Shown here: one piece after another, positions 1-56,940 of the stretch | Layout of the letters: each line of letters starts with the position of its first letter | Position numbering within the stretch: position 1 is the first letter of the stretch | DNA from: Octopus vulgaris | Taxonomy: Eukaryota | Assembly (NCBI GenBank): GCA_951406725.2 | Contig: OX597817.1 | Span: forward strand, 68,696,001 to 68,760,000 | DNA length: 64,000 nucleotides | Reading direction: 5' to 3' | Program-made: the position numbers and the translations under genes | Notes under the pieces: model-generated | What the model was told of the DNA's origin: nothing | The model's input: only the letters and a program-made list of their open reading frames with translations | The model's database searches: none

Positions 1-1222
1 TCCTGATCCACAGTTTCTTCCCTAACCCTCCTCCCAGCCTGGCTTATTCCCCTGCTCTTGCCCATGCTGCTGCACTTGCCCTTACCTCTCCAACACCACT
101 ATCCTCACAAGCACCCATCATCATCCCTATCATATCACTGGCTCCTTTACATGCACTTCTAGCAATGTCATTTACTGCATCTCCTGCTCTTTCTGTCCTT
201 CTCTGTACATCTGCCAAACAGGACACCACTTGGCTGACCAGTTCATAGAACGCCTCTGAGACATTAGACTCGGTAACACCACCCCAGCTTCATGCCATTT
301 CTGGTCTACTGGTCATTCATTACAATACCTGTCTGTGTTTGGATTGTCTTTGCACAGGGGTCATCTGGACTCCTGCCTTCGCTGTGAACAGGAATTAATA
401 TTCTCTCTTTGCTCCTTTGTGCCACATGGACTCAACTCCCTTCCCTTCTTCATCTGACACCCCTCCCCTCATCATCTGACTCTCCTCCTCTCTCATCTCT
501 TCATCTCACACCTACTTCCTCTCTTCACTCCTACCCAACTCTCCTCTCCTGCCCTGACACCTACTTCCCCTCTTCACTCCTACCCATCTTCTCCCTTCAT
601 CATTACCCCTCCATCCCAACCGTACCATCCCAATACAACCCTCTCACACTACCCCTCCCACATCGTCACCCAAACCCCCAACTCACCCTTGCATCCCTAC
701 ACACTAATGCAACCATACCACACACCTGCACACCACAACATACAACACACCACACCACCCTGCACACACTAGCACTAACCACTTCCCAGCACCCACACCA
801 CATCATGACACACCAGACCAAACTACCTTGCACACCCTAGCACCGAAAACTTCCAAGCACCCATACCATCATCCATACACCTACACATGCAAACACTTAC
901 ATACTCTCACATAAACACGCATGCACACATTCCTTGCTCTCCTGTCTCATATAAACACACATACTCTCACATAAACATGCATACACACATTCCTTGCTCT
1001 CCTGTCTTACCACCTCCATCCAGCCAGCTGCCATGATTGACCACGAGCTGCTAAAGCTTTTCTTATTCTCTCTCTATTTATTTTCTCATATTCCTTTCTG
1101 TTGAAGAGTGTAGGCTCAAAATGTAAAAGACTTTCTCACCTTCCTGAGAGTTAAACTAATACACCTGTTTGTTGTTTATACACCTGTCTTCATCTTTTGT
1201 TTTTTTTTTTGTAAATTCCATC
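1..1222 (+). mobile_element. Penelope-like retroelement, 3' part (GIY-YIG endonuclease relic, C/A-rich 3' region, hammerhead-bearing tail, ends in (TA)n)
   Basis: Frame +2, 35-457, reads QPGLFPCSCPCCCTCPYL...FTCTSSNVIYCISCSFCPSLYICQTGHHLADQFIERL*DIR...HF...GHS...EQELIFSLCSFVPHGLNSLPFFI*. This is the PLE Cys linker plus GIY-YIG (VIY...YIGQT) plus terminal P.GLN motif, with one in-frame TGA at 257. The tail 1050-1222 matches 37085-37266. Confidence 0.85.
1093..1130 (+). ncRNA. Decayed minimal hammerhead motif, family A
   Basis: CCTTT CTGTTGA A GAGT-GTAG-GCTC AAAA TG TA AAAGA; a CpG-decayed version of 37130-37167. Confidence 0.55.
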
Positions 1223-14171: not shown

Positions 14172-14344
14172 TACTGAGTCATTAATATTTTCAATAGAAG
14201 CCTTGTTTATGCTAGAGCCTAACCAACAGCTTTAATCACAATCATTTATCTGATCCTACTACATTTTGTGTGTGTGTGTGTGTGTGAGCTGAAACTAGAT
14301 AAAATAAAATAAAATAAAAAATAAAATAAAATATATATGTATAT

Positions 14345-14520
14345 AGTTCAAATTTACAGAAAAATAAAGACAAAGACAGGTGAGGGAAAACTAAGCAGGT
14401 GTATTAGTTTGACACTTGGGAAGAATGGAAAAGTTTTTGACATTTCAAGCCTAAGCACTTTGACAGAAAGGATCATGAGGAAGAAAGTAGAGAGAAAACA
14501 AAAACAATGTGTAGGGATTA
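14345..14520 (-). mobile_element. PLE family A tail, old copy with decayed hammerhead
   Basis: Reverse complement CTTT CTGTCAA A GTGC-TTAG-GCTT GAAA TG TC AAAAA, followed by the AAACTAATACACCTG...GTCTT tail, next to a short TA run. Confidence 0.65.
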
Positions 14521-16840: not shown

Positions 16841-16912
<72 letters not shown>

Positions 16913-17250
16913 AAAATCCATAAAAAAAAAGACAAAAACAGGTGGTGTAGACAACAAACAAATGTATTAGTTTAATACTCGGGAAGTAAAGAAGTCTTTA
17001 ATGTTTCGAGCCTATGCTCTTCCACAGAAAGAAACACAGAAAGGAACAAGGAGAGAAAATAAAGAATGTGTAGTGGCTAGCAACGACGGCCTTCATTCAG
17101 TTTCCATCTTTCAAATCTACTCACAAGGCTTTGATCAGCCTGATGCTATAGTAGAAGACGCTTACTTGATGTGCCATGCAGTGGGACTAAACCCAGAAAC
17201 ATGTGGTTGGGAAGTAAACTTCCTACCACACAGCCACTCCTGCACCTACA
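16645..17250 (-). mobile_element. SINE family 1 interrupted in its internal (TA)n by a PLE tail
   Basis: SINE 3' half 16645-16845, then (TA)n, insert 16910-17083, and SINE 5' half resuming ACGACGGCCTTC to about 17250. Confidence 0.85.
16995..17032 (-). ncRNA. Minimal hammerhead motif, family A
   Basis: Reverse complement TCTTT CTGTGGA A GAGC-ATAG-GCTC GAAA CA TT AAAGA. Confidence 0.65.
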
Positions 17251-25143: not shown

Positions 25144-25206
<63 letters not shown>

Positions 25207-25318
25207 AGCGTAGGCTCGAAATGTAAAAGACTTTTTCTATTCCTGAGCATTATACTAATACATCTTTGTTTTGTACACCACTTGTCTTCGTCTTTTGTTT
25301 TTTTCATAAACTTACCCT

Positions 25319-25363
<45 letters not shown>

Positions 25364-25400
25364 TATATACAATCATTTTTTGTATATGCTGTGTAATTAT
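24300..25400. repeat. Degenerate ~35-40-bp minisatellite (ATATTTTGTGTATGTGCTGTATAATGAT-like), interrupted by a SINE and a PLE tail
   Basis: The unit recurs across 24340-24700 and again at about 25115 and 25375, either side of the insertions. Confidence 0.6.
25204..25320 (+). mobile_element. PLE family A tail, 5'-truncated inside the hammerhead, bounded by (TA)n
   Basis: (TA)n-AAGAGCGTAGGCTCGAAATGTAAAAGAC...CTTACCC-(TA)n. Confidence 0.8.
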
Positions 25401-36248: not shown

Positions 36249-37264
36249 ATCTTCTCTCTTCGCTCTTATACGCCATTTGGTCTCAACTCTCCCCCCCTCC
36301 TCATCTAACCCCCCTCTCCCCCTCCTCACCTATCCGTCCCCCCGACCCCTACTTCTTCAGTCCTTCATCCTTTCACCCCTACTCCCCTTCCCTTCTTCCC
36401 TCTTTCTCCCTCCCTCCTTCCCTCTTCCCCTTCCCTCTGCTCCCTCACTCCCCTTCTCTCTCCCCCTCCCCCTCCCCCTCTTTCCTCCTTCCTCCCCCTC
36501 CTCCTCCCCTTCCTTCTCCCCCTCCTCCCCTCTTCCCCCCTCTCCTTCCCCTCCCCTTCTCCCCCTCTTCTCCTCACTACACCACACGACTTTACACATC
36601 ACATCATATATGATGTGCCATACTAATACATACACCAACTAATACATACTAATACGTACTAATACATACTAATACATACACCAACCCTATACATACACAC
36701 GTCCAGACCCCTCATACGCACTTACACTCTCTCATACACACACACACACACTTATACATACTAATACGTACTAATACATACTAATACATACTAATACATA
36801 CACCAACCCCATACATACGCCTGTCCAGACCTATCCTACGCACTAATACTCTCTCATACACACACACACACACTCACACACACTTATACATACTAATACA
36901 TACTAATACATACACCAACCCTATACATACACACGTCCAGACCCCTCCTACGCACTAATAGCTGGTCATTCAACCCTATTATCAACCCTATTATCTCCCC
37001 TTATTTCGCTCTCGCGTCTCATGTTTGATCTTTGACTTCTGGCCGAAATCAGATCGCCATGTTGATTCGTTAGTTACTGCACGCATTTTTTTTCTCTCCT
37101 TCTTTCTCTGTTTTTTTTCTCTCTGTGTATCTTTCTGTTGAAGAGCGTAGGCTCGAAACGTTAAAGACTTGTTTTATTTATATTTCCTGAGTGCCATACT
37201 AATACAATTGTTTGTTTGTTTTCCACCTGCCTTCGTCTTTTGTCTATTTTCATAAAGCTTCCCG

Positions 37265-37266
<2 letters not shown>
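36249..37266 (+). mobile_element. Young 5'-truncated Penelope-like copy (family A) between TA tracts
   Basis: 36249-36308 reads IFSLRSYTPFGLNSPPLLI*, homologous to the ORF end at 398-457. It is followed by a polypyrimidine tract, (CATACTAATA)n higher-order repeats at 36620-36960, the hammerhead tail and (TA)n. CpGs are retained. Confidence 0.85.
37130..37167 (+). ncRNA. Minimal type-I hammerhead ribozyme motif, family A, best copy (U6 variant)
   Basis: Stem I TCTTT/AAAGA, core CTGTTGA plus A, stem II GAGC-GTAG-GCTC, GAAA, palindromic AACGTT in place of helix III; predicted cleavage after GUU (37162). Confidence 0.7.
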
Positions 37267-37305
<39 letters not shown>

Positions 37306-46310: not shown

Positions 46311-46318
46311 AGATAAGA

Positions 46319-46406
46319 CTGCACCAGGCTCCAGTCTTATCTGGCAATGTTTCTAAGAGCATCCAGCTGTAGAAACATTGCCAGATAAGACTGGAGCCTG
46401 GTGCAG
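46319..46406. repeat. Perfect 37-bp inverted repeat with 14-nt spacer at the 5' junction of a (GAT)n-tailed retroposon
   Basis: 46319-46355 is the exact reverse complement of 46370-46406. Confidence 0.95.
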
Positions 46407-46586
46407 CCTTCTGGCTTCCCAGATCCCCCGGTCGAACCGTCCAACCCATGCTAGCATGGAGAACGGACGTTAAACGATGATGATGATGATGATGATATAT
46501 ATATATATATAAGGTAAGAAAATAGAGAGTTGAGGATGTATAGTTAATTTATTTGGATCATAATTTGAAGTCAAAATTTAAATACA

Positions 46587-47110
46587 AATAAATTTTTTAA
46601 AGTACAAAAGAAACTAAAAAAGAAACCTACATATGTTTTGAATTTGGCCCCTTCGTATTTCATAATTCGACGCATTTGGGTCAAATCCAAAGTTAAGAAT
46701 TGGTTATCATTTTAAACTGCTTGCGCAGAATCTCTTCATGTTATTTTTTTTTTTGTTTTTATAAAACGAAGGTTACATCTTTCATGAAGGGATTGAAGAA
46801 ACTCAAGAAAACCTACATATGTTTCGATTCTGGCTCCTTAGTAATTCGAAGCATTTGGTCAAATCCAATGTTAAGAATTGGTTATCATTTTAATCTGCAT
46901 GAATCCCTTCAAGAAAAATGTAACCATCATTTTGTTAAAAAAAAAAAGAAAGAAACCTGAAGAGATTCTGCCTCAAGCAGTTTAAATTGAGAACCAATTC
47001 TTAACATTGGATTTGATCCAAATGCTTCCAATTAGGAATTACTAAAAGGCCAGAATTGAAATACATGTAGAGGTTTTTGAGTTTCTTTTGTACTTTTTAG
47101 AAGTTTATTA
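46587..47110. mobile_element. Tandem plus inverted ~210-bp repeat array, family C (PLE pseudo-LTR-like)
   Basis: Minus-oriented copy 46587-46794, partial tandem copy 46795-46897, plus-oriented copy 46902-47110; abuts a PLE RT fragment. Confidence 0.8.
46951..47077 (+). ncRNA. Type-I hammerhead motif with 80-nt insert in helix II, family C
   Basis: AGAAAC CTGAAGA GATTCTG [46971-47050] CAGAATT GAAA TACATG TA GAGGTTT. The sister copy 46808-46833 gives CAGAATC GAAA CATATG TA GGTTTT (palindromic ACATATGT). Confidence 0.65.
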
Positions 47111-47470
47111 GGGCAGGTGTGGGGGTGAGAGCAGATGCATGGTCCATGGAAGTGCTCTGGCAAGGGCAATGTGGATAGTGGTGAGGAGATATCCACGTAG
47201 GACGGAGTGGTGAGCAATGAGTTGAGACTGAGTGTTAAAGTCATGGTTGTCACTGCAGAGCCTGCACAGATGGAGGAATTGGGAATAAGGGATGGAGAGC
47301 TTGGTGTATTTAGGGTGGGAGGAAGAGAAGTTGAGGTATGAGTGTGAGTCTGTATGTTTGTAGTGGATGGAGGTGGTGAGATTGGAGTGATGAATGCTGA
47401 CTGAAATATCGAGAAAGGCGATGGAAAGATTTGACAAAAGAGAGGAAGGAGTCTAGTTGTTTGTGGGTGA
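47108..47470 (-). mobile_element. Penelope-like reverse transcriptase fragment (RT7/thumb)
   Basis: IAFLDISVSI...LTTSIHYKHTDSHSYLNFSSSHPKYTKLSIPYSQFLHLCRLCSD...LRGY matches the PLE FLD...YRKPT...YL..S.HP...K.SIP.SQ.LR..R.CS...RGYP pattern. Confidence 0.88.
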
Positions 47471-55526: not shown

Positions 55527-56940
55527 TTTTAAGTTGCAAAAACAGCACAAAAACAGCACAAAACTGTCTGACAAATGGGAACGTGAAACACAGAGTAGCA
55601 GTTTTTGTGAAGTTTTTGCAGCTTTAATACAAAAAGCATATTGCTCTACCTTTGGTATTCAAGTATTATTTTCCCCCCTTGTTTTGCGTTTATGTGCTAA
55701 CTCATGTATGTATGTATGTATGTATGTATGTATGCATCACCAGACATCAGTTGAGGACTCTGCCCCACAGATGAATTCAATATGGTGTGTATATGTATAT
55801 ATATATATATATAGGTATTGCTGTGCGGTAAGAAGTTTGCTTCCCAACCACACTGTTCTGGGTTCAGTTCCACTGTGTGGAATCTTGGGCAAGTGTCTTC
55901 TGCTATAGCCTTGAGTTGACCAAAGCCTTGCAAGTGGCTTTTGTGGACAAAAACTGACAGAAGTGCATCATATATATATAGATAGATCTATGTGTGTCTC
56001 TTTAAGTTTGTGTTTGTGTGCTTCCAGCCACTGCTTGACAACCAGTGTTGGTGTGTTTATGTCTCTGTAAATTAGAAGTTCAGCAAAAGATTGATGGGAT
56101 AAGTATCAGTCTTTAAAAACAGAAATAAGTACTAGGGTTGTTCATTCAACTAACAACTCTACAAGGTGGTACCCCAGCATAGCTGTAGTTTAATGACAGA
56201 AACAAGTAAAAGATTGAAGATATACGCATGTGTGTGTGTGCATATTTGTTTGTGCATACCTTTGTCTAGACATCAAGCAATGGTTGTAACCTATCCCTGT
56301 TTCAAAACAATCTGTTTCCAATATGCATCTTCATAAACAATAAAGCATTTTTAAAATCTGATGATGTGCTGTGATATCTTTAGCACTTTTCTCAGTGCGA
56401 TAGAGGACAAAGAAGGTTGAAAAATCATAGCTATAAAGGACAGTCTATTGTAGATTAAACTGGATACTCGCTAGAATAGTGAAGCATTTACTATCTCCAT
56501 CAAAGACATTGAAGATGAATCAGGGTAGGAAACAATTTTTTGTACCTGTTTGAGCAAAAAACAGATGTTATGATAGTTTATTCTTAACACAGTGGGTGCA
56601 CATTATATATGCATATGACTGCTGCTCACATAAACATGAGCGTATGCATATGTGTGTGTGTGTATATATATGTATCTATATATGTATCCATGTATGTATG
56701 TATGTATGTGTGTATGTATGTATATGTATACATGTAATTCTATGAGATGCGTGTCCAAACAAGAGTGTGTACACAATTGTGAAAATATACAGCTATAATT
56801 GTAACATTAGACATGCATATAAATATGCCAATATAAATATGTGTATGTACCCGTGTACATTCATTTGTATAGATATATCCGTATGTAATGCATAAATGTG
56901 TGTGCATGAGACACAGAAAGACAGATAGCAGGGGAGAGAG

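Follow-up and report, generated by a model that had tools for sequence, protein, structure and literature searches.

Hammerhead ribozymes are common and known in Penelope-like retroelements (PLEs). Loop 2 of these ribozymes measures 3-9 nt in 56 published examples, and the published descriptor admits a maximum of 10 nt (PMC4209133, Fig. S7). The elements form arrays with a partial tandem, an adjacent inverted copy and an optional tail (PMC8557442). In Adineta vaga the pseudo-LTRs (pLTRs) are 193-218 bp long and carry 5' palindromes, and their inverted junctions contain a 15-bp overlap that has been read as a sign of self-priming (Arkhipova 2013, PMC3846280). Two reverse-transcriptase (RT) start sites define the PLE tail (PMC11167929), and hammerheads with an open stem II are known among those of type II (PMC3088659).

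Here we describe an octopus locus in which a hammerhead motif of the PLE type encloses 80 nt in the place of the short loop 2. The explanation that we favour, with moderate confidence, is that three decayed copies of a likely PLE pLTR carry an ordinary minimal hammerhead, whose 8-bp, GCAA-capped stem II has been interrupted by a probable passenger of about 73 nt.

Three copies of one repeat unit

The window, by which we mean the whole 64-kb stretch of DNA analysed, is animal DNA of 35% G+C in which microsatellites and short dispersed repeats are abundant; its SINEs presumably resemble those of octopus. It contains no long ORF, ARAGORN returned 0 matches, and a Pfam search of six window frames gave nothing useful. 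Self-alignment of the region confirmed the partial tandem plus inverted array that an earlier note had described from the letters, and resolved it into three copies (u1, u2 and inv) of one unit of ~188 nt, with inv lying head-to-head to the others.

46587..46795, minus strand: u1, a full unit, with a 188-nt pLTR-like body (46608-46795) and a 21-nt tail (46587-46607)
46587..46607, minus strand: tail of u1, common to inv and absent at the u2-u1 junction
46796..46905, minus strand: u2, the upstream copy, 5'-truncated and tail-less, running straight into u1
46901..47109, plus strand: inv, an inverted full unit with a 22-nt tail (47088-47109)
46901..46913, plus strand: inversion junction, lying on the anti-core of inv, where direct and inverted copies overlap (from sequence and alignment)
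46755..46767, no strand assigned: palindrome at the centre of the 5' hairpin of u1, containing a TATA-like run

The optional tail of the unit is thus 21-22 nt long; the tails of u1 and inv are identical in 18 of 22 columns and end on the same TTTATT. The sequences of u1 and inv agree in 119 of the 148 columns that run from helix II to the tail, and the fold-back arms of 97 and 70 nt are 82-84% complementary. The palindrome at 46755-46767 lies ~25 nt upstream of the u1 core, and from its sequence it could be a candidate pLTR promoter. No target-site duplication is visible in the sequence around the array, and no further copy of the unit was found in the 64-kb window. Searches with exact patterns of the unit gave 0 matches in metagenome contigs and 0 in prokaryote genomes; one exact-pattern match in viral contigs was set aside as a chance match, having no further likeness to the unit. 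Of 24 sequencing runs listed, 20 contain some of the stretch and 3 at least half of it, with no RNA run among those listed; small shares in other organisms were left out of account. The ~188-nt repeat is likely the pLTR of a PLE.

A decayed hammerhead motif of the PLE type

An intact core is present in inv, and the best kept 3' half of the ribozyme in u2.

46957..47069, plus strand: type I hammerhead relic of inv, with a predicted cut after 47069
46957-46963, plus strand: core of inv
46964-46970/47051-47057, plus strand: helix II of inv
47058-47061, plus strand: GAAA of inv
47062-47067, plus strand: helix III of inv, mutated
47067-47069, plus strand: GUA of inv
46826-46832, 46822-46825 and 46814-46816, minus strand: helix II 3' strand, GAAA and GUA of u2, with a palindromic helix III

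The CTGAAGA core, the 7-bp helix II, the GAAA and the GUA are all present where the earlier note had placed them, and the helix encloses exactly 80 nt as claimed (80 and 79 nt in the two full copies). The palindromic helix III, ACATATGT, occurs in both minus-strand sister copies, and the GUA cleavage triplet in three out of three. The note was likewise right that PLE loops are usually short and that a length-limited search would miss this locus, given the limit of 10 nt on loop 2 in the published descriptor (PMC4209133). Since standard descriptors are blind to a long loop 2, such families may be under-counted.

The relic of inv is the only exact-core match in the window with a helix of at least 4 bp and without an extra base, and the motif is expected at 0.01 per shuffled window (200 shuffles), or at 0.053 when the extra base is allowed (300 shuffles). 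Adding the requirement for UH and for a palindromic helix III lowers the expectation, for this full descriptor, to 0.003 per shuffled window. Each copy has decayed in its own way. In inv the core and GAAA are intact and helix III has two changes; u1 has changes at C3 and G12 and two breaks in helix II; u2 retains GAAA only and has no true 5' half. Of the two true cores, one has C at position 3. Base 11.1 of the 7-bp helix II is C in u1 and u2, while inv has a G-U pair; CpG decay would account for what is seen at C11.1-G12, where inv and u1 show the two products expected of it. Neither full copy has an extra base between A9 and G10.1.

Several of these observations could be turned towards a reading without a hammerhead or a PLE, in which the hammerhead-like words would be chance products within a local inverted duplication or within a DNA element of the foldback or MITE-like kind. 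The ends do form inverted repeats, none of the three copies singly passes the full descriptor with the palindromic helix III, and a relaxed descriptor finds four other matches in the window, for which reason only the strict form counts. Rfam gave 0 matches over the window at the gathering score, and no hammerhead stands among the best 150 of 334 E-value matches. We nevertheless consider this reading very improbable, because the full descriptor is so rare in shuffled windows and a composite of the sister copies passes it inside a 200-nt unit. Against it stand also the tail, present at both ends and missing at the internal junction, and the overlap at the inverted junction together with the lack of a target-site duplication.

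We conclude that the hammerhead motif is real, and that it is a decayed one of the PLE type in a textbook pLTR array; the array, the tails, the motif and the published anatomy of PLEs together support the earlier proposal of a hammerhead relic in a PLE pLTR. It is filed as a variant of the PLE minimal hammerhead rather than as a plain member because its loop 2 is too long and its helix I imperfect. The present copies are predicted not to cleave, owing to the core and helix defects in each, a predicted trap by an anti-core (see below) and a read-through transcript that would fold on itself.

A probable insertion in an ordinary stem II

The earlier note took the 80 nt for a structured, expanded domain. 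Our results do not bear this out: the opening 10 nt of the loop make up the remainder of an ordinary GCAA-capped stem II, and the rest folds at chance level.

46717..46728, minus strand: CUGC-GCAA-GCAG hairpin of u1, a remnant of a compact GNRA-capped stem II, present in both the MFE and the centroid structure
46981..47053, plus strand: 73-nt insertion, with CAG repeats at its edges (46978-46980 and 47051-47053)

The hairpin of u1 comes immediately behind the 5' strand of helix II, and inv keeps the same proximal stem with a 5-nt loop. A partner for the proximal hairpin arises by chance at a rate of 0.011 (20000 shuffles), a figure to be read with the fact that the hairpin was noticed post hoc. 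CAG closes this hairpin and recurs where the distal helix II strand begins, and a CAG-to-CAG deletion yields a stem II of 8 bp that is perfect and capped by a GCAA loop (-12.8 kcal/mol). From the proximal hairpin and the CAG repeats, the loop is best understood as an ordinary stem II with a 73-nt insertion on its 3' side. From three copies at one locus, and no family consensus, the insertion can be called no more than a probable passenger.

Folding of the insert does not rise above the level of shuffled sequences. The three copies have z-scores of -0.95, 0.09 and -0.7, and 14 variants sampled from 81 majority variants range from +0.2 to +1.1. The stems CCAAT/ATTGG and TTGGAT/ATCCAA are mutually exclusive because both use TTGG, and the three nested stems of the earlier note were therefore rejected as one structure; the two proposed stems that can coexist are paired in 27 of 30 cells. 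There are no two-sided changes in the 10 pairs tested, nor in the 23 pairs predicted by RNAalifold; these are weak tests, as no covariation can be expected among three copies of a single event. Conservation of the core above its flanks, to which the earlier note had looked, is not seen locally: between the two full copies, identical columns number 20/26 on the core side, 67/80 in the insert and 32/42 downstream. This comparison is a weak one, since the copies likely arose in one insertion event and then decayed neutrally, and copies of such an origin cannot show selection.

These results bear on the possibility that the whole family carries the insert as a structured domain under selection, for example a module for protein binding or tertiary contact, on stem II of a hammerhead that is active and cleaves as a dimer. 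The insert is compatible with the hammerhead fold, because the long-range helix II closes over it: in isolation, the pair probability at the third pair is 0.96-1.00 in 81 of 81 majority variants. The insert is also present in all three copies, short abutting hairpins can be drawn from the two compatible stems, and PLE hammerheads can need the help of protein (PMC11167929). We still regard a structured domain as unlikely in view of the chance-level folding, the absence of any compensatory pair, the proposed stems that cannot coexist, the helix I fault in both full copies and the competing anti-core.

The edges of the insert suggest another origin, that of a spliceosomal intron retained in stem II (74 nt, GT-AG, 46980-47053), the splicing of which would rebuild a compact stem and so gate self-cleavage. 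Intron retention in DNA copies is a hallmark of PLEs and counts in favour of such an origin. GT is found in two of the three copies and AG in two of the three, and the spliced stem (4 bp, one bulge, 3 bp and a GCAA loop) folds at -5.4 kcal/mol. The size is near that of the 75-bp pLTR intron of Drosophila virilis Penelope (PMC2377424), the end of which overlaps the hammerhead of that element, where helix II has a mid-stem bulge (PMC4209133). The signals themselves argue the other way: the donor context GTTTAA is poor and no pyrimidine tract is seen (judged by eye), the branch-like TACTAA lies only ~8 nt from AG, and removal from GT to AG costs one base beyond those lost in the clean CAG-to-CAG deletion. 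On balance a retained intron seems to us quite improbable. The same low expectation attaches to the switch that would follow from it, in which the unspliced RNA, the form that is copied into DNA, would keep the ribozyme off with the help of the anti-core, and splicing would assemble the compact GNRA-capped ribozyme. If true, such a splicing-gated switch would tie intron retention in PLEs to the function of their hammerheads.

Helix I and the dimeric fold

Helix I is imperfect, as the earlier note had remarked of these decayed copies, although decay may not suffice as the whole cause. Both u1 and u2 have two G after the cut site, and only one C precedes the core; the second pair of helix I must therefore be a G-A mismatch unless a G bulges out or C3 is consumed. 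In u1 the first pair is G-C and the second is the G-A mismatch (inv was assessed by eye), and longer runs of helix I require that a single G stay unpaired or that C3 be drawn in. The fault, common to both full copies, may go beyond decay alone, and the loss of one C in the source copy would explain the fault in register. The suggestion that tandem copies allow a dimeric fold stands in principle for one site, at which the u1 core would act with the u2 cleavage site.

An anti-core and a possible origin of the locus

The unit begins with a segment that is complementary to its own catalytic core.

46783..46795, minus strand: anti-core of u1, whose complementarity to the catalytic core and the beginning of helix II extends over 12-13 nt

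The anti-core hairpin of u1 has a z-score of -3.37, with only 1 of 200 shuffles as good, while folding of the whole u1 unit is unremarkable (z -0.53). Pair probabilities are 0.67-0.99 at 11 of the 12 positions. In a join of u1 and u2, the presence of the anti-core lowers the probability of helix II from ~0.64 to 0.07, and the cost of opening the core is 6.7 kcal/mol with the anti-core and 5.4 kcal/mol without it. The anti-core is thus predicted by these folding models to trap the catalytic core; it may be a regulator, or it may be no more than a scar left by a small inversion at an earlier time.

The arrangement of the three copies was likely produced by a single retrotransposition event. In such an event, a partial-tandem RNA that already contained the insert would have been copied, the new cDNA would have folded back at the place where its versions of the core start and of the anti-core could pair with each other, and by then copying itself as far as the tail it would have produced the inverted copy. 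A snap-back at the anti-core would account for both ends of inv, the first at the anti-core and the second on the base at which u1 also ends. RNA reading through the finished array would form a long fold-back on itself. Transposition in vitro persists in hammerhead mutants (PMC11167929), so the copying of an insert-bearing RNA is no proof of an active ribozyme.

Other PLE-related sequences in the window

Two fragments of PLE coding sequence lie in the window.

47111..47459, minus strand: PLE reverse-transcriptase fragment, Neptune-like, cut at both ends and adjoining the tail of inv
29-454, plus strand: C-terminal GIY-YIG endonuclease from a Neptune-like PLE, decayed; a C/T-rich stretch comes next and reaches to ~1050

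The RT fragment is 40-70% identical to 53 proteins among 283 candidates, and the five of these that were inspected have RT and/or GIY-YIG domains and a cysteine linker. The label Neptune-like is given by this linker (PMC8557442). A PDB sequence search with the fragment returned weak, unrelated matches only. The fragment probably belongs to a PLE family other than that of the three-copy unit, and as a proof of the clade of the unit it was rejected, since it seems to be another family's. No ORF with RT and GIY-YIG domains was found between the repeats of the unit at the locus. The C/T-rich stretch behind the endonuclease end is followed by a repeat unlike the three-copy unit, which therefore is not the repeat of that family.

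This second repeat was aligned at five places (1058-1259, 37092-37302, 14331-14504, 16868-17062 and 25204-25373), the first of them after the Neptune-like endonuclease end. It ends in (TA)n and contains a motif like a minimal hammerhead with a short loop, a GAGC/GCTC stem II and a 5-bp helix I; all four copies that keep the core have U instead of A6. Its short-loop motif means that PLEs of this genome carry ordinary short loops. A stricter short-loop scan of the window gave 0 matches outside the locus. A possible decayed hammerhead lies at 55558-55615 on the plus strand, with G8 of the core changed, a weak 3-bp helix II and an 8-bp helix I. Just left of the locus, where two SINE-like pieces meet, 46315-46410 holds 41-bp arms that are 98% complementary and separated by a 14-nt gap.

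Comparison with known systems

The literature searched contained no PLE hammerhead with a long insertion in stem II; its coverage is incomplete and long-loop variants may exist, but an insertion of this size is unusual by that measure. Should the insert turn out to be family-wide and either structured or spliced, it would offer a handle on what PLE hammerheads do and on why PLEs keep introns. As found, it is one decayed locus.

The nearest counterpart of the motif is the minimal hammerhead of PLEs (Cervera and de la Pena 2014, PMC4209133). Like it, the present motif has a CUGAnGA core, G10.1-C11.1, a helix II of 7-8 bp, a short palindromic helix III and NUH, with copies on opposite strands 100-700 bp apart. 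It differs in its loop 2 of 79-80 nt, in a helix I that is out of register and in the upstream anti-core. The usual extra base after A9 is also missing here, as it is in a few published examples. In minimal hammerheads of PLEs helix II has 3-8 bp, and helix I has 2-7 bp and abuts C3 and H17. D. virilis Penelope (PMC4209133; PMC2377424) shares the palindromic AU-rich helix III, the GG after the cut site and an intron-sized segment tied to the hammerhead. Its 75-bp intron ends at helix I and its splicing is proven, whereas the segment described here lies inside stem II and has weak signals.

Core halves that lie far apart (35-50 nt) are described in an invertebrate PLE as the 'HHR_half_core' of Naiad, including Naiad_Ovul of an octopus (Craig 2021, PMC8557442); the spacing here is 94 nt and, unlike in Naiad, helices II and III are clear. 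Naiad identity of the unit found no support in a term search of the PMC8557442 supplement, in which three of five short terms of the unit were absent and two occurred once each in unrelated text. Four motifs of the unit were also absent from the 5,371 characters of the supplement of an octopus repeat paper (PMC13282606). Animal non-LTR retrozymes (PMC7229834; bioRxiv 10.64898/2026.07.22.740005) resemble the unit in being short, non-coding, PLE-derived and of similar size, with a type I hammerhead. The consecutive units with complete hammerheads that characterise retrozymes are not found here: u2 is truncated, no copy is complete, and instead of a head-to-tail array there are an inverted copy and tails. 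The canonical contact between loops 1 and 2 is likewise not seen.

As an array, the locus stands closest to the Penelope/Poseidon-type pLTRs of A. vaga (PMC3846280). There are differences, in that no ORF lies between the repeats and no target-site duplication is seen here, and the tail of 21-22 nt compares with ~31 nt in the A. vaga arrays and with ~30-40 bp for the optional 3' tail of PLE pLTRs. The likenesses extend over the repeat of ~200 bp, the partial tandem, the optional tail, the 5' palindrome, the head-to-head copy that overlaps its neighbour by ~13-15 bp, and the signature of self-priming. As it stands, the chief value of the locus is that of a clear fossil, in which a cDNA primed itself at the palindrome of a pLTR.
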